From sequence record OQ718158.1: a stretch of DNA of 64,000 bases; one strand, written 5' to 3'. Under the pieces are notes generated by a model. It saw nothing but the letters and a program-made list of their open reading frames with translations, ran no database searches and was not told the DNA's origin. Positions 1-57,592 of the stretch are shown here, one piece after another (position 1 is the stretch's first letter; every line of letters begins with the position of its first letter). This DNA comes from Escherichia phage vB_Ec-M-J. The position numbers and the translations under genes were made by a program.

Positions 1-35
1 TAATTTGGGCAGTTTTTATATTAGCAGTACTTTAA

Positions 36-58
36 AGCACCCTAGTGGTGCTTTTTCT
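36..58 (+). terminator. intrinsic terminator-like hairpin upstream of nrdD
   Basis: Stem agcacc/ggtgct (36-52) followed by a T-run. Confidence 0.4.
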
Positions 59-167
59 ATTTGTACAAATATAAAGCAATGTGACCTTTCCTTGATATAG
101 GTCAAGAGAAATACCCTGTTCTGACGCTATAATGGTGTCTGGTGATGTTAAATAACTTCACCCCCAG

Positions 168-2000
168 ATGATTTCAAAATACAAGGAAAGTAAAATGCAA
201 TTAGATAAATTATATACTGACGTAACAAATTTCCTAAATCAGAGCAATACTGATCTTACAAATGAAAATGCAAACAAAGATGCGAAATGCGTCAATACAC
301 ACAGGGATTTACTTGCTGGTATCCTATCTAAGCATTATTCACAAGATGTTATTCCAAAGGAGCTAATGCAGTGGCATAATGATGGTTATGGTCACATTCA
401 TGATTTAGACTACTATATCAGCCCATTAACTAACTGCTGCTTGGTTAACTACCCAGATATGCTAAAAAATGGATTTACCATTGGTTGTGCAAAAATTGAA
501 GAACCAAAGAGTTTTAGTGTAGCATGTACAGTACTGACACAAATTGTACAAGCTGTTGCTAGTTCCCAGTACGGTGGTCAATCGTTGGCTCATATCGACG
601 TGGGTCTTGAACCTTACGTCCAAAAGTCGTGGGATAAGCTATTAGCGAAGCAAAAGGCATATAATCTCAGTACTGAATACATTGAGGAAGAATTACGAAA
701 AGAAGTCTATGATGGGTGTCAAACCTTACTTTACCAGACAAATTCAATGATTAGTACAAATGGTCAAGCAGCATTCATTTCTCTTAGTTTGGGACTGAAT
801 ACTTCAAAATTTGGTAAATTAATCACTGAACAGTACTTAAAAGTACATGAGAATGGTTTAGGTAAAGATAAGATTACTCCTGTGTTTCCTAAAGTAATTT
901 TCTTTTTACAGGACGGAATCAACATGAATAGCGATGATTGCAACTATGACATGAAACAGTTGGCAATGCGTTGTGCATCGAAGAGAATCTACCCAGACTT
1001 CGTTTCTGTGCCGTTAAATCACAAAGTTACAGGAAGTGGCAGTACAGCAGTAACTCCGATGGGTTGTCGTTCATTTTTAGGAAAATGGGAAGATTCCAAT
1101 GGAAATGAGCAATATAACGGTCGTTTCAACTTAGGCGTAGTTTCTATCAATTTACCTCTAATTGCTCTTGAAAGTGCCTCAGATGGAGAGTTTTTTGATA
1201 AAATAGACGAGCATATGAATATTGCATATCGTGCTCAGATGAACCGTGTAGAGCGTTTAAAAGGCACAAAAGCGAAGCAGAATCCGATTTTGTTCATGGA
1301 AGGTGCACTTTCACGTTTAGGGGCAGAAGAAACGATTGACAAGCTATTTTATAACGGATATGCTAGTATTAGTATTGGTTACGTTGGTTTAGTTGAATGT
1401 TCAGAAATTCTGACTGGTTCTATCAGTAAGGAGTTCTGCATGTCAGTACTGAATTATATGAAAGTAAAATGCGATGAGTTCAAAAAAGAGAGTAATATAG
1501 CTTTTAGTCTATATGGAACCCCAGCAGAGTCACTTTGCTACAAATTTGCACGTTGCATCGAATCTAAATACCCTTCAGTACTAAAACGTGATTACATCAC
1601 AAATTCCTTCCACCAACCAGTATGGGTAGCAAGTTCACCATTTGATAAGTGGAGTTACGAAGAGGGTTTTGCTTACCTCAGTAATGGTGGAAACATCAGT
1701 TATGTTGAATCACCCAACCTAAGTAACAATATTCAAGCACTTGAGACTTTAGTCAATTACGCTTACACAAAGATCCCATATTTTGGTATCAACCAGCCAA
1801 TTGACCAGTGTTACGAGTGTGGGTATAAAGGTGAGTTCAGTGTAGATAAACACGGTTTTCATTGTCCAGTATGTGATAATCGCAATGAGAAGACAATCTC
1901 AGTGATTCGTCGTGTTTCTGGATATTTGGGGAACCCATCGTCTCGTGGATTCAACAAAGGCAAACAACAAGAATGTTGTGAGCGTATACAACACAAATAA
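168..2000 (+). CDS. nrdD: anaerobic ribonucleoside-triphosphate reductase (class III RNR)
   Basis: 610 aa; C-terminal Cys cluster (CYECG...CPVC) and glycyl-radical motif RVSGYLG; NrdG gene immediately downstream. Confidence 0.9.
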   Translation: MISKYKESKMQLDKLYTDVTNFLNQSNTDLTNENANKDAKCVNTHRDLLAGILSKHYSQDVIPKELMQWHNDGYGHIHDLDYYISPLTNCCLVNYPDMLKNGFTIGCAKIEEPKSFSVACTVLTQIVQAVASSQYGGQSLAHIDVGLEPYVQKSWDKLLAKQKAYNLSTEYIEEELRKEVYDGCQTLLYQTNSMISTNGQAAFISLSLGLNTSKFGKLITEQYLKVHENGLGKDKITPVFPKVIFFLQDGINMNSDDCNYDMKQLAMRCASKRIYPDFVSVPLNHKVTGSGSTAVTPMGCRSFLGKWEDSNGNEQYNGRFNLGVVSINLPLIALESASDGEFFDKIDEHMNIAYRAQMNRVERLKGTKAKQNPILFMEGALSRLGAEETIDKLFYNGYASISIGYVGLVECSEILTGSISKEFCMSVLNYMKVKCDEFKKESNIAFSLYGTPAESLCYKFARCIESKYPSVLKRDYITNSFHQPVWVASSPFDKWSYEEGFAYLSNGGNISYVESPNLSNNIQALETLVNYAYTKIPYFGINQPIDQCYECGYKGEFSVDKHGFHCPVCDNRNEKTISVIRRVSGYLGNPSSRGFNKGKQQECCERIQHK

Positions 2001-2008
2001 GGTACATT

Positions 2009-2335
2009 ATGGATTTAAAGCCAATTGTGGTTAACAAATATAAAGAACCGTATGATGTGTATATCGGGCGTGGGTCTAAATGGGGAAACCCATTTACCCA
2101 TATCAGTGATAAACAGACCAAAGCCGAGTTCATTGTTGCTACAAGGGAAGAATCAATCGAAAAGTTCAGAGAATACATTATTGAGCGTATTTCTAATGGA
2201 GAAGTTAAGATTGATGATTTACTTGAGTTAGCAGGGAAACGTCTTGGCTGTTTCTGTAAACCGAAATCATGTCATGGTGATGTTCTCGTTGAGATAGTGA
2301 GTGCAATATTAGATGAATTACCAGACGATAATTAA
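2009..2335 (+). CDS. conserved phage protein, DUF4326-like (CxC...CHGD motif)
   Basis: 108 aa; motifs YIGRGSKWGNPF and GCFCKPKSCHGD; sits between nrdD and nrdG. Confidence 0.5.
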   Translation: MDLKPIVVNKYKEPYDVYIGRGSKWGNPFTHISDKQTKAEFIVATREESIEKFREYIIERISNGEVKIDDLLELAGKRLGCFCKPKSCHGDVLVEIVSAILDELPDDN

Positions 2336-2783
2336 AGACGACCTTATTAATGGGGAGGGAGTAAGATGCTCCCTTTTTGTTAGTGGGTGCAGTCATGGAT
2401 GTGACGGATGCTTCAACGAAGAGGCATGGGATTATAGAAGTGGGCAAGAGTTCAGTACTGATACAATTGATACAATTTTAGCTGAACTCAGCAAACCGTA
2501 CATTAGTGGGTTATCACTCCTTGGTGGAGATCCTCTAATGAAAAAGAACATCGAAACAATTTTAGAGCTATGTAAAATTGTAAAAGAGACTTATCCCAAT
2601 AAAACTATTTGGTGCTGGAGTGGATATACTTTAGAAGAGATTATGGATAATCATGCTAAAGACATTCTTCAGTACTTAGATGTATTAGTTGATGGTAAAT
2701 TTGTTTCAGAAGAAAAGAATTTAACATTACCATTTCGTGGTTCAAATAACCAACGTATACTTTATAAAAATAAAAATTTTTAA
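2313..2783 (+). CDS. nrdG: anaerobic RNR activating enzyme (radical SAM)
   Basis: 156 aa; starts MNY like E. coli NrdG; CxxxCxxC radical-SAM motif CSHGCDGC; GGDPL motif. Confidence 0.9.
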   Translation: MNYQTIIKDDLINGEGVRCSLFVSGCSHGCDGCFNEEAWDYRSGQEFSTDTIDTILAELSKPYISGLSLLGGDPLMKKNIETILELCKIVKETYPNKTIWCWSGYTLEEIMDNHAKDILQYLDVLVDGKFVSEEKNLTLPFRGSNNQRILYKNKNF

Positions 2784-2785
2784 CA

Positions 2786-2816
2786 AAAAAGCACCCAAAT
2801 GGGTGCTTTGTCTATT
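2786..2816. terminator. bidirectional intrinsic terminator between convergent genes
   Basis: Hairpin gcaccc-aaat-gggtgc flanked by an A-run 5' and T-rich 3'. Confidence 0.6.
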
Positions 2817-4002
2817 TTGGTGTTTGTAACGTTACAAACGAACCAGTTAATGTATCAGAAGTTGGGTTTATACCAGTATACATAACACCATTACTTATTA
2901 CTATTGCAGTAAGGTTGTAAGACATTGAAATGAAATCATCAGAATCAGTTAGTGAATTTGGAATTAAACTAAATGTAAGTGTTGGATTTGGATTGGAACC
3001 CAAACGAGTTGTATAGTTTCCACCAGTTCCATATAAACCATCTGATTTTTTTATACCTATACCAAAATATCCTTCTGAATATACTGGATACAATTTATAA
3101 TCAGTTCCCATATCAAATGCAATCAAAGTTGGGTTTACAACGTTTCCTGATGCAGAAACACCATTACCCAAGTTACCAGCTATTCGGTTACCACATACCC
3201 ACATTTCATCAACCGATGTTGTAGTATTACGTAATACCATATATGTACCATAGTAAGAAACCATAATATCCGAAACGGTGTATGATGCTTTTGTATATTC
3301 TGTGAACGTTGTTAAGGCAGTTGTGTTACCCGTTCCAAGCTGCCCATTATTATTGATACCACATCGAAAAAGTGTATTATTATTTTTTAATATCCAAGTT
3401 CCATTATCAGCAGCTATACATATTTTTTTAACATCAGTACTAATTAATGTGAATTTAGTTACTGCTGATGTGTTTCCAGTTCCTAATGTACCATTAGCAT
3501 TTCTACCCATTCCGTAAGCTGAACCATCATTGAAATGTATAATTATATTATCCACCCAAACATGTATATCTTTTATATTATTGAGTTGTTCTTCTGTAAA
3601 TACACTAGAAAAGTAACTAGTTCTATCTACATAAACATTCGAGAATGATGACACACCCCCAAATGCATAAGTCGTGGTTGAGCATGATAAAAATTCATCA
3701 GTTTTCGTTTGTAATAATATAAATCGTCCAAAGGAACACCAAGCGTTTTTAACATTACTTCGGATAAGGGTCCAGGTAGTACGGTTAGTGCTTACATCAC
3801 CATCACCAAAAATATAATTTGAACCAGCACCACTACCACCACCACCACCAATTCCCCATAACTCACCATTATCATATAATATTATGATAGCAGAATAGTT
3901 GCTCGTTGTTGGTGTTAGTATTTTAGATATATTTGGTGTTGGAGCACGATTTCCGTACTTCACCATTCTTGCAAATGGAAGCATTTTAAGTCTCCTTATC
4001 AT
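2812..4002 (-). CDS. RCC1-like beta-propeller repeat protein
   Basis: 396 aa; repeated G-x-N-x-x-GQLGTGNT-type motifs (four or more); Gly-rich GGGGGSGAGS segment; only minus-strand gene in this plus-strand block. Confidence 0.5.
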   Translation of the reverse strand: MIRRLKMLPFARMVKYGNRAPTPNISKILTPTTSNYSAIIILYDNGELWGIGGGGGSGAGSNYIFGDGDVSTNRTTWTLIRSNVKNAWCSFGRFILLQTKTDEFLSCSTTTYAFGGVSSFSNVYVDRTSYFSSVFTEEQLNNIKDIHVWVDNIIIHFNDGSAYGMGRNANGTLGTGNTSAVTKFTLISTDVKKICIAADNGTWILKNNNTLFRCGINNNGQLGTGNTTALTTFTEYTKASYTVSDIMVSYYGTYMVLRNTTTSVDEMWVCGNRIAGNLGNGVSASGNVVNPTLIAFDMGTDYKLYPVYSEGYFGIGIKKSDGLYGTGGNYTTRLGSNPNPTLTFSLIPNSLTDSDDFISMSYNLTAIVISNGVMYTGINPTSDTLTGSFVTLQTPK

Positions 4003-4051
4003 TATTATATAGTATATTTATGCAACTTTCCTTTAGTTCGCTTTTAGTAAC

Positions 4052-4063
4052 CTCTAATAAATA
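4052..4063 (+). promoter_or_regulatory. late-promoter-like motif CTCTAATAAATA
   Basis: About 33 nt upstream of the 4097 start; same motif class recurs at 13894-13904 and 29867-29877. Confidence 0.35.
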
Positions 4064-4096
4064 CAGTAACTAATATCTAAATTACAAGGGATATGT

Positions 4097-6793
4097 ATGT
4101 CAAAGAAAATATATGGTGGCTTAGACGTCACTCATAATGTGACAGTTAAAGGGAAAAGAACAGTACAGGGCATCAATGAACAAGTATTTGATGCTAATGG
4201 TAATATGGAAATTGATACATATTCCAAAGAAGAATTACTTGATGTAATTAGTTTACTTCCAATCTCGCATTATGGTACACATAACTATCTACCTGCTGGG
4301 GTATCTGGTGATTTTAATGGTGCATCAGAAAACCAATCCCAACGTAGAAACAAAATACTTTTAGAAAACGATGGCACATTAGTACTATTACGTAGTGGTA
4401 CAAACGGTAGTGTTGAAGGTTTATTTTATTCTTACCTAGCGAACGCATTATCCGTTACCGATATGAGCCGTACTGTTAATACAAGCCGTCAGTATAAGCC
4501 TGGCTATTTTGGGGCAAACCGTGTTGCTATTGGTTTATACAATACCGATTCAAAAATACTGTTAGGTCGTTACAATGACACATCTACCAATACTAATGGG
4601 TTGTTTATATCAGTAACGAATGGTACATTGGATGATACTCAACATAGTGGTCTTTTTGTGAACCAAGCTGATATTTCACCTGAAGGTGGGATTGAGTATG
4701 CTATGATGGCAGAAGACGGTTCAGTTTATGTATTCAACGTCCTTAATGAAAATAACAAACTACAGATTGTTGTTGTTCGTGTTGTATTGAATATTGCAAA
4801 CGGTACTTATACTGCTACCCGAATCACGGGGTGGACAACAAAAACTTTTTACAATACTACATATACTGCTCAGAATAATATGATCATTACTGACCATGTT
4901 AACTCAACTAATATTGCTGATAAGCCCTATGTCTATGTACCACAAAATTTGGCTGGTATGGGGATTTATATGACATCTATCGATTTATATGTTGCTCAGG
5001 AGCCAGGAACGCAGAACTTCCGATTCAGAATGAATGGTGACGCATGGTTCACTATGGCAAACTACAATACCCGACCACAGCATAGTTATAGTTTCAATTT
5101 TAACATGAGTACTAAACAATGTAACTTGGATAATGGGAACGATATTGGTACATTTGCTGCACCATTTGTTGTTACAAACACAGGTTCGGCATTGGTTGCT
5201 ACTGGTAATGTTCTCAACAACGATCCGTTATATGACCATAGCGGTGCAAGAAACATTTACAGTTCATATTATTATTTGAATACAGGTGAAGTATTCTGTA
5301 CTGCATGTCCAAACTTAGCAGAACCATTACTTATGCAGAAAGCTAAATTTACTGCACAATCAATATATAGCATGATTAATGTACGTGCGAACATTTCAAC
5401 TGATTTCAGAAATGGCATAGTTCGTCCTTCATTTGGTTCAGCAGTTGGTTCTTTTATTAACGGCGTAGAATTGCTTCCAGGGAACAGTACTAAACAGTAT
5501 TCTCGTTCAACTGGTTCTGGTGCATTCCGTCCATCTTATGCAGTTCATAAAAGTACTCCTAACTTTACGTTTAATTCTTTATCACGTGGAACCATACAAG
5601 GTTATGAGCCAACAACAGAACGTGCTAATGTGACAGATAACACGAACAACAGAGTTTTTATTAGTTCCATTAGTGGTAATAATGTTACTACAAATGGTGG
5701 GATATTCATGGTAGGTCAGAGATATTCCCAATCACTATCATATGATAAAAATATGAACGGAACTGGTATCATTAGTGTTACTCAATCTGTACTTGATAAT
5801 TTCAGAAATGCTGAATACGCCAAAGTACTAAGCGACTGGAACTTATCTTCTGCTGCTTATAAAGATATGACATTGTTTGTTCCACAACAAACTGATATAC
5901 CTGCATTCGTAATGCTAAGTACAGTTACAAATACATATCAGAACTATATTAGAATTGCTGAAGTGAATGTGAATACACGTTCAGGTAATATCACTACAAT
6001 TACCTTCAAGCGTTTAGTACTAGAAAACGTTTACGGAAGTAACTTTACACCAAATGGTAATGGTAGTTTTGCATTGTCTTCTGTTGGTTTAACAATATAT
6101 GATGGTGGTTCTTTCTACTTCATAGGTGGTTCTGACCCATTATCTCACCCAACTATTGGTAATACAAACACACACCAATTCAGAGCATATGTAACAAAAG
6201 CAACTGCACAATTTGATAGTTTTATTATCAGTGGTTCACATGCAAGTTATGAGCAAGGTATTCAACCAGCAGCTTTACCTGGTATTGGTTTTGGTTATTT
6301 CCAAGCAATAGACTATGTAAACAAAATGACTTTCCAAAAATGTGGTACTACAATTGCTGATTATAATAACTGGACTGCTCAAGGTGCACCGATTAACGTA
6401 GTTTCACAAGACGTTGCTCAAGGTTTTATTGTGTACTTCACAGAAGAAACTCCAGTAATTCTTTCTGGTAAAGCATTTACATTACCGATTACTAGTATAA
6501 ACTTAACTACAGTTAAGGCTAATCCAGCAAACACATTATTTCATGTATATGTTAAAATGGAACAAGGTAATGCAAAATATGTAATAACAACTGATGTTAT
6601 TTCAGAGACTGGTACTACAGCATATAATATTTTCTGGATAGGTACTATACAAACAAACTCACTACAAATATCAAATGTTAACATACAAAAACGTTCAAGA
6701 TTGGATATTTTCGGTGCGTCACTTGAAGCTGCTGGTTCTTCATTCCCAGTTAGTTATGGTCTACCGTCACAAACAGGAACAATCAATTGGTAA
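4097..6793 (+). CDS. putative tail fibre / receptor-binding protein, paralog A
   Basis: 898 aa; paralogous to 7410..10139 (shared LLRSGTNGS and FIVYFTEE blocks); C-terminal module SFPVS.G.P.QTGT..W also in 6806..7393. Confidence 0.5.
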   Translation: MSKKIYGGLDVTHNVTVKGKRTVQGINEQVFDANGNMEIDTYSKEELLDVISLLPISHYGTHNYLPAGVSGDFNGASENQSQRRNKILLENDGTLVLLRSGTNGSVEGLFYSYLANALSVTDMSRTVNTSRQYKPGYFGANRVAIGLYNTDSKILLGRYNDTSTNTNGLFISVTNGTLDDTQHSGLFVNQADISPEGGIEYAMMAEDGSVYVFNVLNENNKLQIVVVRVVLNIANGTYTATRITGWTTKTFYNTTYTAQNNMIITDHVNSTNIADKPYVYVPQNLAGMGIYMTSIDLYVAQEPGTQNFRFRMNGDAWFTMANYNTRPQHSYSFNFNMSTKQCNLDNGNDIGTFAAPFVVTNTGSALVATGNVLNNDPLYDHSGARNIYSSYYYLNTGEVFCTACPNLAEPLLMQKAKFTAQSIYSMINVRANISTDFRNGIVRPSFGSAVGSFINGVELLPGNSTKQYSRSTGSGAFRPSYAVHKSTPNFTFNSLSRGTIQGYEPTTERANVTDNTNNRVFISSISGNNVTTNGGIFMVGQRYSQSLSYDKNMNGTGIISVTQSVLDNFRNAEYAKVLSDWNLSSAAYKDMTLFVPQQTDIPAFVMLSTVTNTYQNYIRIAEVNVNTRSGNITTITFKRLVLENVYGSNFTPNGNGSFALSSVGLTIYDGGSFYFIGGSDPLSHPTIGNTNTHQFRAYVTKATAQFDSFIISGSHASYEQGIQPAALPGIGFGYFQAIDYVNKMTFQKCGTTIADYNNWTAQGAPINVVSQDVAQGFIVYFTEETPVILSGKAFTLPITSINLTTVKANPANTLFHVYVKMEQGNAKYVITTDVISETGTTAYNIFWIGTIQTNSLQISNVNIQKRSRLDIFGASLEAAGSSFPVSYGLPSQTGTINW

Positions 6794-6805
6794 AGGATTA
6801 ATCTT

Positions 6806-7393
6806 ATGGCATATATTATAAGATCCGATATCGAAGCTATGTCACAAATCGTAGTCCAGAATAAAAACACTGGACTATCTATTAGTGATATTAATGACGT
6901 ATCGTATCGAACAGACGCAAATGGGGAATGTACATTCCCCCTCTTAACAAAAGATGAAGTTGATTCTATTGTTAACGGTTTACCATTATCACAATATGGT
7001 GAACTTTATGATGTATCTAGTTTGTCAATTACATCAAGCGGTTATTCATTACGTTTTAACCGAGAGATACCTGCATTCATCGGTGGCTATCTTTATAATT
7101 ACCCTGTTGTTGCAGTGACAGCACCAACAGTGGCATCAGGAACACAAACACAATATGTATACGCTACTTTAGTACTGGGTGAGCCAATTTATAGAATCTC
7201 AACTTCACAATTACAAGAATCACAGATTATAATGTTCATCGGGACTATTACCGTTGGAACTTCTGGTATTACTGCTATCAACATTGAACGCGTATCACGA
7301 TTCAATACATACAGACCAAGTACAACACAAAAAGGTTCATCTTTCCCAGTCAGTACTGGAAATCCAACACAAACTGGTACATTAGGCTGGTAA
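6806..7393 (+). CDS. small fibre-related protein sharing the C-terminal module of the flanking fibre genes
   Basis: 195 aa; C-terminus RFNTYRPSTTQKGSSFPVSTGNPTQTGTLGW parallels the C-termini of both neighbours. Confidence 0.45.
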   Translation: MAYIIRSDIEAMSQIVVQNKNTGLSISDINDVSYRTDANGECTFPLLTKDEVDSIVNGLPLSQYGELYDVSSLSITSSGYSLRFNREIPAFIGGYLYNYPVVAVTAPTVASGTQTQYVYATLVLGEPIYRISTSQLQESQIIMFIGTITVGTSGITAINIERVSRFNTYRPSTTQKGSSFPVSTGNPTQTGTLGW

Positions 7394-7409
7394 TTAAAGG
7401 AAAAAGAAT

Positions 7410-10139
7410 ATGTCATCCAAACGCATCATTGGTAGTGCTGCTATACTTGGAAATTTAGCAATTGGTGGAAAGTACGCTATGCGTACTTTTAATGGTACAG
7501 CACCAGACGCAAATACAGGTATTGTTGACTATCCAATTTATAAAAGATCAGAAGTTCAAAAAATACTTGATATGTTACCAATCTCCCGTATAGGGGAAAT
7601 GGATTATCTACCATTAAACGTTAATGGTTCATACGAAGGGGCAACGTCGCTTTCAGATGTATACCGTATGCAACCAACAATAGTCGAAGATGATGGTACT
7701 GGTGTGGTATTACGTGCTGGTACAAATGGTAGTACTGAAGGATATTACTATGCATTCATTCGTGATTTGCGTAATATTGATGCACTAACACAAAGTAGTG
7801 TTATCAGTACTACATCAAAATATCATCCTAGAATTCTTCCAAGTACTGAAAATGTTAAACAGTTTATCGGAACGAATGGTTATGAATTACTAGTTAGCCT
7901 ATCTAGTGCAAGTAATTATATTTTCACTTTAACAAATGGTACATTTAACGAAGTTGCACATATTCACGCTTCTATCGCTGCTACATCATTTGGTACAGAT
8001 AAACCATTGTATGCACATATCGTTAATGATAAAGTATTTGTGTGGTGCAAAGACACTACTATAGCAAACTATGGTTTGGCTTTAACATTATATACTGTTA
8101 ATACAAGTAGTATTAAAGATGGTACTATGAGTACTTTTGCTAAGGTTACTGGTTTTTCTGGTCAAACCTTAAGAAGTGTTAACTACACAAGTGCTAATAA
8201 TTTGAAAATTTATGAAAGATTATATTCAGTTGGAACTAGTAGTGATTCATTATTTGAATGCACTTCACCAGTTACACGAGTTGAATATTCAGATTATACA
8301 GATTATAATATACAAGCAAACGTAAGTCCAGATTTATCAAAGATTAGAATTACATTATTTCCAACTAACCGTTTAGTATCAAATCTATATATTAGTACTG
8401 TTTATGCTAGTGGTTTTAGTTTTGTTTATACTATCAACTCTAAATCATTATCAATTGATGGAAGTAGTAGAGCACCAATAGCAGCGGAATATAATGATGT
8501 TGATGGATTCACATTAACAAACCCATTTGCCATTGAGATGAACAACTTCATGGGTACACAGTTAGGTGTTCCGCAATTAGGTAACGTTGGTTCTATATGC
8601 CAAACCTATGACGGTTTAGTATTCAGTACTCGTGCTCGTTGGAGTTCTTCTGAAACCTATGGTATTCAGGTTTATAACGTAACAGGAACACCATATGATA
8701 GTTGGGTTGCCAGTACTCGCAAAGCGAACAATTCTAAATTTGTAAACGTTGCCCCAACATATGGTAGTGCAGTAGGTGAAAACCTTTTAGGAACACGTTT
8801 TATTGATAAACGTAAAGTACTGTTAGCATGTTCTGGAACATATGAAGATGAGTCATATGGTTATAACAATACAGTATTTTCTGAAATTGGCACTGATCCA
8901 ACCTTCCAGTTCAATTCAGTACAAAACAATACAACACTTAATGGTTTTGCACCACAAGCCAACCGAACTCGCCTCGGCGACAACTACAAATATACAGGTA
9001 TGATTTCATTAATTGATACTGACGGTTCAGTTAAATGTTATGGGACATCATTCATTGAAGGTGTATACAAAACAAGTGGTGGTTTGTTTAACCCAGATAC
9101 TTTAGAATTTGATGGTTCTTATACAATTGGTGATAATGTTCTGGAAACATTAAAACAAGAAATACTTGCTAATATTGGAATAGTAGGAGCATTTACTGGT
9201 AAAATTGCTTTATATTATGTACCAGATAGTTCTTTCTCAAAATCTATTGCGGTGGTTTCTGCATATAACTTAGGAAATAACCAAGGTTATGCAATATATT
9301 CTGAAGTTGATGTCACTGTTTCAGGAACCAATATTAGTTCTGCGTCTATGGTGAGTTCTAGATACGAAACACTTAATTCTGTAACAGGTATTGTAACCGA
9401 AGCCTATATGAAACGCTGTACTGGTCTAACTGTTGCTAAGTATTCTGGTTTTGGTTATATTGGTGTTGATGCAGTTCATCAGTTTTCACAACCTGGTAAT
9501 GCTCAATTCAAATTGATGATTGCTAAAACAGTGAATGGTTTGATTACATCTAACCGATTTATGTCATCCAGCTACATAGATAATGGCAATGCATTCCAGC
9601 ACGGAGTTATACCAGGTGTTGGATTTGGATACTATCATCTTCAAGATTCAGATTATCAAACTAAAGCAGTGTTTAGTCTCTTTGGGACAACATCAGCACA
9701 GATGGATGGGTTGATTGATGGTTCAGGAACTGTACAAGATAAAATCGTAGTAGTTTCACAAGATGTTGCTGAAGGTTTCACTGTGTACTTCACCCGTGAA
9801 GTTCCGGTATTCCTTGGTGGTATGTTTGATAGATTAGCGATTCAAACCATAGAATTAAGTACTATTAAAACTAACCCAGCTAACAGTACTTTTTATCTTT
9901 ACATTCAAATGAACCGTAACACAAGAAAAGCGGCATACGTTATCAGTACAACTCTTCTTGATGAGACATTGACAAACGTATATGTTGGTGATATTGTTAC
10001 TGGAAGTACGAGTATTACGTCAATTGATACTGAAAAGGTAACCCGATTCTTGACATACAGACCTAGTACGACCAAGCGTGGTTCTGCTATCCCAGCAAGT
10101 ACTGGTGTTCCTTCAAGCTCTGGTACACGTTGGCATTAA
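7410..10139 (+). CDS. putative tail fibre / receptor-binding protein, paralog B
   Basis: 909 aa; paralog of 4097..6793 with divergent central region. Confidence 0.5.
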   Translation: MSSKRIIGSAAILGNLAIGGKYAMRTFNGTAPDANTGIVDYPIYKRSEVQKILDMLPISRIGEMDYLPLNVNGSYEGATSLSDVYRMQPTIVEDDGTGVVLRAGTNGSTEGYYYAFIRDLRNIDALTQSSVISTTSKYHPRILPSTENVKQFIGTNGYELLVSLSSASNYIFTLTNGTFNEVAHIHASIAATSFGTDKPLYAHIVNDKVFVWCKDTTIANYGLALTLYTVNTSSIKDGTMSTFAKVTGFSGQTLRSVNYTSANNLKIYERLYSVGTSSDSLFECTSPVTRVEYSDYTDYNIQANVSPDLSKIRITLFPTNRLVSNLYISTVYASGFSFVYTINSKSLSIDGSSRAPIAAEYNDVDGFTLTNPFAIEMNNFMGTQLGVPQLGNVGSICQTYDGLVFSTRARWSSSETYGIQVYNVTGTPYDSWVASTRKANNSKFVNVAPTYGSAVGENLLGTRFIDKRKVLLACSGTYEDESYGYNNTVFSEIGTDPTFQFNSVQNNTTLNGFAPQANRTRLGDNYKYTGMISLIDTDGSVKCYGTSFIEGVYKTSGGLFNPDTLEFDGSYTIGDNVLETLKQEILANIGIVGAFTGKIALYYVPDSSFSKSIAVVSAYNLGNNQGYAIYSEVDVTVSGTNISSASMVSSRYETLNSVTGIVTEAYMKRCTGLTVAKYSGFGYIGVDAVHQFSQPGNAQFKLMIAKTVNGLITSNRFMSSSYIDNGNAFQHGVIPGVGFGYYHLQDSDYQTKAVFSLFGTTSAQMDGLIDGSGTVQDKIVVVSQDVAEGFTVYFTREVPVFLGGMFDRLAIQTIELSTIKTNPANSTFYLYIQMNRNTRKAAYVISTTLLDETLTNVYVGDIVTGSTSITSIDTEKVTRFLTYRPSTTKRGSAIPASTGVPSSSGTRWH

Positions 10140-10209: not shown

Positions 10210-10776
10210 ATGGTCAAATCTTTACTACCACCACCAAAGCGTCACAAAATCCAAGAAATGAAAGACCAACGTACATTAAAGATGTACAACAATTTAGTTA
10301 AGTTACTGTGTAAAAGTCCATCGCTCAAAGCAGAGTTTAAAACTGATGATGACCGCAAAGCACTAATTGAGATGAAGTATATGCTCAGTAAAATGTCCTT
10401 TTACAAATTTGTAAAAGAATACGCATCTGACCCATTTAGTCCTCGTTGGAGAACCAAACCAAGAGAGTTTTTTTTCGGTGGTTCATATACTGATATCATT
10501 CAAGATACTGTGATAGGCGTAGAGTTCGAGATTGATTATGAGCCGAATGGTGTGGAAAACTTGCTGATTGAGAAACGTTTACCAAGTGAAGAAGAAATTT
10601 ATGTTTATGCAAGAAAACTTTCAACTTACAGTTCAAGAATTACTCTAGGCAAGTTAGATTCATTTATTATTTTCTATATACGTGTTGGCGTAGACAAAAT
10701 GGTAACTAAACTCAATGAACTTTCATTACAACAAAAACAGATTAATGCATACAAAGACATTACTGATTTATACTAA
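10210..10776 (+). CDS. hypothetical protein, tandem paralog family member 1
   Basis: 188 aa; shares an N-terminal module (KSPSLKAEFKTDDDRKALIEMKYMLSK) with the next two genes. Confidence 0.55.
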   Translation: MVKSLLPPPKRHKIQEMKDQRTLKMYNNLVKLLCKSPSLKAEFKTDDDRKALIEMKYMLSKMSFYKFVKEYASDPFSPRWRTKPREFFFGGSYTDIIQDTVIGVEFEIDYEPNGVENLLIEKRLPSEEEIYVYARKLSTYSSRITLGKLDSFIIFYIRVGVDKMVTKLNELSLQQKQINAYKDITDLY

Positions 10777-50595: not shown

Positions 50596-50639
50596 TTAAA
50601 TATTTCCTCAGAATAGATTATATATTAAGTATTTATTTT

Positions 50640-57497: not shown

Positions 57498-57592
57498 AGA
57501 GTCCCCTCCTATAACGATGAACTATATATTCATAACCCATCTTTTGTTAATATACTTATATTTAGTTTAATTCACAAAAACACTATTATCTA

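Follow-up and report, generated by a model that had tools for sequence, protein, structure and literature searches.

Gene organization at the nrdG locus

We analysed a 64,000-nucleotide stretch of Escherichia phage vB_Ec-M-J (OQ718158.1; the window) and focus here on one of its genes, a minus-strand gene encoding an RCC1-like protein. Judged from its sequence, the window belongs to a jumbo coliphage of the Asteriusvirus type. Over its first 10 kb it shares 97-98.7% identity with Escherichia phage WPEC5, and the flanks of the gene match 38 jumbo phages in GenBank. The original prediction, made from the letters of the window, had placed a gene on the opposite strand at 2812-4002, and an intact open reading frame (ORF) of 396 codons is present there when the longest frame is taken from the ATG at 4002. 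The true start is almost certainly the ATG at 3984 instead, because a Shine-Dalgarno sequence, AAGGAG (3992..3997, minus strand), lies 7 nt 5' of this codon and because all paralogs and NCBI-called orthologs begin with MLPF. The position of the Shine-Dalgarno sequence and the N-termini of the paralogs led us to reject a start at the upstream ATG 4002, which would add an MIRRLK extension. The coding sequence from ATG 3984 (2812..3984, minus strand; called from the ORF, Pfam/PHROG, AlphaFold2 (AF2) and Foldseek) specifies an RCC1-like, seven-bladed beta-propeller of 390 aa with the N-terminus MLPFARMVKYGN.

An ORF scan supported the idea that this is the only minus-strand gene in the first 48 kb. 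Before 48.6 kb it is the sole credible one, and the only other minus-strand ORF of at least 120 aa, at 31579-32037, overlaps plus-strand genes. Two plus-strand ORFs that overlap the gene, at 2979-3224 and at 3278-3517, were taken to be its shadows. To its left lies nrdG, encoding the anaerobic ribonucleotide reductase activase (2313..2783, plus strand; PHROG 626, 4e-65), and to its right a plus-strand gene for an 898-aa protein (4097..6793; PHROG 3573), which by orthology corresponds to gp323c of phage phAPEC6.

The protein is a predicted RCC1-like propeller

Profile searches bore out the proposal that the gene encodes an RCC1-like beta-propeller. Pfam PF00415 (RCC1) matched with an E value of 3.6e-10 and 40.7 bits, above its curated cut-off of 21.7, and the PHROG 4219 profile matched residues 6-384 with an E value of 3.1e-65. 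PF25390 also matched with an E value of 3.7e-16, but its 59.8 bits are under its cut-off of 150. When a profile of the family was compared with solved RCC1-like domains, matches reached 2.5e-41 (HERC1). The AF2 model has a mean predicted local distance difference test (pLDDT) score of 87.1 and a predicted template modelling score (pTM) of 0.87, and it forms a closed propeller. The strand pattern gives seven blades, with the ring predicted to close where strands in residues 19-46 join residues 379-386. Foldseek found the model to be most similar to UVR8 (TM-score 0.75-0.80), RCC1, RPGR, and HERC2; for the phage family, the best structural match was the PBECO4 RCC1 protein (E 2.7e-29). As modelled, the window gene encodes a seven-bladed RCC1-like propeller.

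The repeats themselves are fewer than had been claimed. Repeats of the G-x-N-x-x-GQLGTGNT type are present, but instead of at least four there are three clean G-x-N-x-x-G-x-L-G-x-G motifs (residues 158-171, 209-221, and 265-277 of the 390-aa protein). At least two further RCC1 repeats are degenerate, and the seven blades are visible in the fold only. The protein also contains a glycine run, GIGGGGGSGAGS (3823-3850, minus strand; residues 44-54), which is encoded by GGT/GGA repeats; orthologs differ here by one codon in length and by substitutions.

In composition the protein has 13% charged residues, 48% S/T/N/G/Y residues, and an isoelectric point (pI) of 6.1. The family as a whole has 10-16% charged and 42-52% S/T/N/G/Y residues, which resembles the fibre proteins of the window and is unlike its enzymes. 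The basic N-terminal tail with which RCC1 proper binds chromatin, a hallmark of that protein, is absent, and an MLPF tag is found there instead. Its other hallmark, Ran-GEF activity, would lack a substrate in bacteria. There was no match in NCBIfam or PADLOC. The phage protein is not a chromatin or Ran regulator, and the names "DNA condensation" and "GTPase regulator" are unsupported transfers from the domain.

The gene arrived as a cassette behind the nrdG hairpin

Window positions 1-2809 and 4042-8400 are adjacent in WPEC5, so collinearity with that phage defines 2810..4041 as a 1232-bp insertion that holds the promoter, ribosome binding site (RBS), tag, and propeller as one cassette. The GC content of the insertion is 33.7%, compared with 36.6% for the window. 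The flanks in relatives are joined within approximately 660 bp, and the insertion site at the nrdG locus is empty in all 38 matching GenBank relatives. The precision of this insertion agrees with the earlier proposal that the gene was acquired independently of its neighbours. That proposal had also allowed for the opposite finding, a core structural protein conserved in all relatives, which does not hold for a copy that is absent from the relatives' locus.

A palindromic hairpin terminator with a 9-bp stem, found by a terminator scan of both strands, occupies 2788..2809, starting 2 nt past the stop codon of the RCC1-like gene (minus strand), and is shared with the convergent nrdG (plus strand). 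Its folding energy is -14.7 kcal/mol on one strand and -16.9 kcal/mol on the other (z -2.9 and -4.8, respectively). The hairpin is older than the insertion, as it is present in WPEC5, which has no gene there. The cassette is arranged for putative termination on the opposite strand at the nrdG hairpin. The gene is not "bracketed" by a bidirectional terminator as first described; there is a single hairpin at its 3' end only, and folding and terminator scans showed the 5' side to be an unstructured divergent promoter region.

Orthologs with 96-99.5% identity occupy the same site in the same orientation on at least 15 further contigs, which come from many sequencing runs, and they are intact in at least 13 sequence variants. 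Some are in "E. coli" assemblies on contigs of about 357-360 kb. The proteins filed there as "Escherichia coli" come from complete jumbo-phage genomes that lie unlabelled in bacterial assemblies. Comparison of the window gene with one ortholog gave a ratio of nonsynonymous to synonymous substitution rates (dN/dS) of 0.22, showing purifying selection. These sequence comparisons show a functional gene that one sub-lineage passes on stably.

The cassette belongs to a phage-internal family

Asteriusvirus genomes carry tandem arrays of at least 10 RCC1-like genes of approximately 370-400 aa each (EJP2, WPEC3, phAPEC6). These arrays were noted before in the papers on phAPEC6 and CBB (CBB: PMC5259590). 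In each array unit the gene is accompanied by a terminator hairpin and by a conserved element, AAATATAGTATAATGAATAAAGGAGG; the cognate of this element at the window copy is TAAATATACTATATAATAATGATAAGGAG. A promoter-like motif and an AGGAG RBS directly upstream of the gene, a hallmark of the family, are both present in the window, and the RBS has the same context as in the array cassettes. Tandem position and GCCAGTACT-type hairpins, the hallmark of the arrays, are not found, since the window has a single inverted copy at the nrdG locus in its 64 kb. Metagenomic relatives have similar lone inverted RCC1-like cassettes that end at bidirectional hairpins.

The window gene is 25-39% identical to known members of the family, and among GenBank phages no protein is more than 34% identical to it. 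An identity of at most 39% to any other member means that the donor is unsampled or that the split is old. Nonetheless, the N-terminal tag and the promoter/RBS cassette of the family travelled along with the gene. On sequence grounds we regard the gene as a divergent orphan of the Asteriusvirus RCC1-like family rather than a eukaryote-like import. To call the family "eukaryote-like", as the original prediction did, is misleading, because the source is a phage-internal multigene family with at least 10 tandem copies in Asteriusvirus. In the arrays, among them those of 121Q and phAPEC6, there are also truncated or fragmentary tagged ORFs (36, 68, 245, and 264-269 aa) and uncalled gaps, which suggests birth-and-death turnover of cassettes. 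One slot of the 121Q array is filled by a glycine-rich, non-RCC1 tagged protein.

The promoter-like motif upstream of the window gene is TAAATATACTATATAAT (4004..4020, minus strand), found by a pattern scan of the window for the class TAAATA-N2-7-TATAWT. This class has five matches in the window compared with 0.66 expected, and in every case a gene on that strand follows closely. The remaining four (35583-35597, plus strand; 50617-50635, 57549-57564, and 62617-62632, minus strand) precede a tail tube paralog, a gene for a 654-aa protein, and two tail fibre genes. A cognate motif is found 5' of every array paralog. An ungapped search of the window with the array promoter consensus found nothing; the window copy has a 2-nt insertion relative to that consensus, and a gapped pattern was needed. 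The ORF at 10210 has a sigma-70-type TTGACG-N17-TATAAT upstream instead, and the two types of upstream motif suggest that the phage has two promoter classes.

A conserved N-terminal tag is shared with unrelated domains

Codons 1-12 of the gene (3949..3984, minus strand) encode the family's N-terminal tag, MLPFARMVKYGN, identified by pattern match and homolog alignment. It fits the dodecapeptide M-L-P-F-x-R-[MLI]-x-x-Y-G-N, and a degenerate pattern of the tag matches nowhere else in the 64-kb window, where chance would give 0 matches. When 26 homologs of approximately 25% pairwise identity were aligned, the first 12 residues proved to be the most conserved part. Positions M1, P3, F4, R6, Y10, and N12 do not vary in this alignment, and conservation of L2 and G11 is 90% or more. 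Between the window gene and the phAPEC6 copies, the tag codons have three synonymous differences that leave the peptide unchanged, and the tag census showed alternative codons at Pro3, Tyr10, and Gly11. Synonymous change with fixed residues indicates that conservation acts on the protein. In the AF2 model residues 1-18 are coil, with a pLDDT of approximately 50 for residues 1-10, which predicts that the tag is a free peptide and not the closing strand of the propeller.

The tag is not confined to RCC1-like proteins. It is also found on Kelch propellers (CBB_550, 552, 554), on Laminin_G_3 or ConA-like lectins (CBB_551, CBB_247, and others), on glycine-rich proteins (the one inside the 121Q array and CBB_144), and on uncharacterised modules of 200-250 aa. 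CBB_247 is an orphan between DNA-metabolism genes. A scan of IMG/VR with the back-translated tag matched only contigs of jumbo phages (approximately 350-380 kb), and a metagenome scan found further tagged ORFs after about half of the pattern matches had been discarded as chance (short ORFs, internal positions, Ser at position 6). The motif MLPFxRxxxYGN was not found in the literature searched. Of 79 tags, 30 have K at position 9, 15 have E, and Q and D are found in 12 each. The window protein has K; its residues 7-9 are M-V-K, so that the L/I-x-E hallmark of a prohead-protease site is absent.

CBB_144 (KU574722, 75120-75884) is a tagged glycine-rich virion protein that begins MLPFSPLIVYGN and is encoded inside the nrd cluster just upstream of nrdG. 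It adjoins homologs of the 898- and 909-aa genes of the window. Its position in the nrd cluster indicates that this neighbourhood was hit at least two times independently by tagged cassettes, once in the window and once at CBB_144.

Tagged proteins are enriched in virions

Published proteomes connect the tagged family with the virus particle. In phAPEC6, 8 of 11 tagged RCC1-like proteins are in the mass spectrometry (MS) list of the virion, which holds 62 of 551 proteins (PMC7247149; hypergeometric p = 2e-6). The virion list of CBB, with 55 of 554 proteins, contains 9 of the tagged proteins of that phage, which number at least 11 (PMC5259590; hypergeometric p = 2e-8). The CBB virion proteins that are absent from phage GAP32 (CBB_144, 247, 536, 537, 551, 552) are tagged in six of six cases, and it has been argued that components of the CBB whiskers are among the virion proteins that GAP32 lacks (PMC5259590). 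A tagged RCC1-like protein of GAP32 itself, gp001, was reported as detected by MS (PMC5259590). Overall, the family is an accessory one that is associated with virions, and the possible virion role raised for the window protein in the original prediction agrees with these results on its paralogs. Because the tagged proteins are found mostly in virus particles, the tag is probably a ticket into the particle, and we propose that it is a virion-incorporation or docking peptide.

Neighbouring genes

To the right of the RCC1-like gene are three adjoining plus-strand genes at 4097-6793, 6806-7393, and 7410-10139, which encode proteins of 898, 195, and 909 aa with a common C-terminal domain of approximately 120 aa. 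This domain ends in G-S-[SA]-[FI]-P-[VA]-S-x-G-x-P-x-x-[ST]-G-T-x-x-W (PHROGs 3573, 26864). Sequence searches with the three proteins found no Pfam or PDB match. The phAPEC6 ortholog of the first, gp323c, is a virion protein by MS (PMC7247149, table), and orthologs of the set are virion proteins in both phAPEC6 (gp323c) and CBB (148, 149). The three are candidate fibre or "hair" proteins. We also considered them as the acceptor of the tag. This idea is weakened because they have annotated similarities to proteins of PVP-SE1 and EL, phages with no hit in the tag scan, which matched jumbo contigs of approximately 350-380 kb only.

On the left side, a DUF4326-type ORF (2009-2335, plus strand) lies between nrdD and nrdG and overlaps the start of nrdG by 23 nt. 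It is 100% identical in the window and two metagenomic relatives; nrdG is approximately 3% different. The rest of the 64-kb window includes a tail sheath gene, tail tube paralogs, and giant tail-fibre genes. Three consecutive tail-tube-like paralogs (34847-35533, 35623-36399, and 36411-37505, plus strand; PHROGs 4542/13438) follow the tail sheath gene.

Discussion

The RCC1-like gene of the window may be best understood as a functional orphan of the tagged family of Rak2-like or Asteriusvirus jumbo phages, encoding a late binding module that is carried on the virion through its N-terminal tag and is probably exposed at the surface; we judge this explanation to have close to an even chance of being right. 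As shown above, a self-contained cassette of promoter-like motif, RBS, tag, and propeller was inserted directly behind the nrdG hairpin in one sub-lineage and then kept under purifying selection. By this account the gene would be transcribed together with structural genes, and its protein would enter the virion, brought there by the flexible peptide MLPFARMVKYGN. The promoter-like motif shared with tail tube and tail fibre genes speaks for such late co-expression. The tag heads binding modules that are otherwise unrelated (propellers of the RCC1-like and Kelch types, ConA-like lectins, and glycine-rich proteins), and most likely it would dock each of them on a common acceptor on the outside of the particle, for instance the "hairs" or fibres seen on the capsid or tail of phAPEC6 and CBB. 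The low-charge propeller, rich in Ser, Thr, Asn, and Gly, would then be one of several interchangeable ligand-binding heads for structures on the host surface. We infer late expression and incorporation into the virion through the tag with moderate confidence, and exposure at the surface as one of a panel of binding heads with less. Three observations point to a surface-type nature. The composition, with 13% charged and 48% S/T/N/G/Y residues, is like that of the fibre proteins of the window. Prokaryotic RCC1-like homologs carry type IX secretion system (T9SS) sorting, SLH, PKD, Big, and collagen domains, and gp40, a "tail protein" of Salmonella phage PVP-SE1 encoded where a tail-fibre cluster ends, has an Ig-like Big_2 domain in addition to its RCC1 repeats.

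Several points weigh against this explanation. The association with virions is extrapolated from paralogs that are at most 39% identical to the window protein, and the RCC1-like proteins were detected at low peptide counts (1-5). The virion MS lists also include thymidylate synthase, a RecA-like protein, and a ssDNA-binding protein, and the presence of such non-structural proteins makes contamination possible. The promoter-like motif is a consensus match only. The positions scored in the tag census are fixed by the search pattern itself, from which the homolog alignment and the CBB annotation are exempt. The acceptor of the tag on the particle is a postulate only, and literature searches found no electron cryomicroscopy paper that assigns the tagged proteins. 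The authors of the phAPEC6 study preferred an internal role in organising DNA.

The main rival to a surface position is a protein packaged inside the head. The tag would then be a capsid-targeting sequence (CTS) as in IPI-III of T4, and its cargo would be loaded on the inner body or the scaffolding core, leave the head by ejection along with the DNA, and then target host proteins or defences. The internal proteins of T4 that have a CTS share a short N-terminal peptide among unrelated virion-associated proteins and are encoded in hyperplastic, multi-copy loci, which is the pattern seen for the tagged family. RCC1 and Kelch modules are protein-protein interaction domains, RCC1-like proteins were proposed by the phAPEC6 authors for the inner body of that phage, and some tags have L-I-E or M-L-E before Tyr10, like the site of the T4 protease gp21. 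However, this protease site is not conserved, as the window protein and 30 of 79 tags have Lys at position 9 and only 15 of the 79 have Glu. To a lesser degree, the fibre-like composition, low charge, and near-neutral pI are unlike those of DNA-associated core proteins. The cargo, which includes ConA-like lectins, Kelch propellers, and RCC1 domains that have Ig-like or collagen partners elsewhere, is typical of surface binders. Moreover, the six CBB-specific virion proteins are all tagged, and external whiskers set CBB apart from GAP32 (PMC5259590). An internal or ejected protein is disfavoured by the protease site, the composition, and the types of cargo, and we consider it unlikely, though it is the rival to be taken most seriously.

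We consider it improbable that the protein stays out of the virion as an intracellular binder of a host factor or as the "DNA condensation" protein of the database names. Eukaryotic RCC1 binds chromatin and Ran, database annotations read "regulator of chromosome condensation", "DNA condensation protein", or "GTPase regulator", and the MS lists contain contaminants. But the names derive from the domain only, Ran is absent from bacteria, the protein lacks a basic tail and has 13% charged residues and a pI of 6.1, and neither PADLOC nor NCBIfam has a match for it. Virion proteomes from two independent studies are also enriched in tagged proteins (p = 2e-6 for phAPEC6 and 2e-8 for CBB), and the promoter-like motif is common to tail genes. 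Very little speaks for the reading implied by the original prediction, in which an RCC1 gene without relation to the genes of the phage itself was recently acquired by horizontal transfer from a bacterium or eukaryote. The inverted orientation, the GC content of 33.7% compared with 36.6%, and a best GenBank phage homolog at 34% identity would fit an import, but the best matches are all jumbo-phage paralogs, homologs from bacteria have much lower scores and no tag, and the gene has both the family-specific 12-residue tag and the family promoter/RBS cassette. It is just as hard to believe that the gene is a decaying, functionless duplicate. Truncated array members are common (phAPEC6 gp007 of 269 aa; remnants of 36-68 aa in 121Q-like arrays), whereas this gene is intact in at least 13 sequence variants on at least 15 contigs, has a dN/dS of 0.22 and a confident seven-blade model, and has kept its RBS and promoter-like motif.

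As regards the gene itself our claim is modest, because the RCC1-like family was already annotated, if functionally unexplained, and the window gene is one more divergent copy. The tag may be of wider interest. A shared 12-residue N-terminus ties together at least four unrelated types of binding domain and is strongly enriched in two published virion proteomes. It is possible, with a chance somewhat short of even, that MLPFxRxxxYGN marks a plug-in system of Rak2-like jumbo phages that has not been described before, a 12-residue address for interchangeable binding heads that spreads as self-contained cassettes of promoter, tag, and module and directs the heads to one shared site on the particle, plausibly the "hairs" or whiskers. 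The tag makes two questions testable, namely the role of the "RCC1/DNA condensation" arrays and the identity of the proteins that form the hairs of phAPEC6 and CBB or decorate them. Should the tag prove to be a portable virion address, foreign binders could also be displayed on jumbo phages by means of it.

As a comparison, eukaryotic RCC1-like domains (UVR8, RCC1, RPGR, HERC1/2) share the fold and repeat signature with the phage protein (TM-score 0.63-0.80; Foldseek E values down to 2e-19) at 14-18% identity. The phage protein differs from them in its very low charge, its phage-specific tag, the lack of a basic N-terminal tail, and a host that has neither Ran nor chromatin. PVP-SE1 gp40 is similar in having an RCC1-repeat propeller, and its gene is at the distal end of a cluster for tail fibres. 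By contrast, gp40 has 604 aa, an extra Ig-like Big_2 domain, and no MLPF tag, and its phage belongs to the Vequintavirinae. Internal proteins of T4 with a CTS resemble the tagged family in that a peptide of approximately 10-12 residues heads diverse virion-borne proteins encoded in plastic loci; the tagged family lacks a conserved L/I-x-E site and has a fibre-like composition with lectin and propeller cargo.

In secondary receptor-binding proteins (RBPs) of the KP32 gp38 or KP34 gp57 type, a short conserved N-terminal peptide is followed by interchangeable binding or enzymatic modules, an analogy of architecture only. For KP32-type RBP2, experiments showed a short N-terminal docking peptide to be necessary and sufficient for virion incorporation (PMC13352976). 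These phages are podophages, their peptide is approximately 29 aa, and its cargo is a trimeric tailspike. There the acceptor is a T4 gp10-like branching domain, whereas here it is postulated only. The closest known relatives are the Asteriusvirus arrays (phAPEC6 gp001-010 and gp549-551; 121Q_234-248; PBECO4) together with GAP32 gp001. The window copy differs from the arrays in being lone and inverted, between nrdG and a virion-protein gene, and in abutting the nrdG hairpin instead of having the array terminator GCCAGTACT...AGTACTGGC. It shares with the arrays and gp001 the PHROG 4219 assignment, a length of approximately 370-400 aa, the seven-bladed propeller, the invariant N-terminal MLPFxRxxxYGN, and the promoter/RBS cassette.

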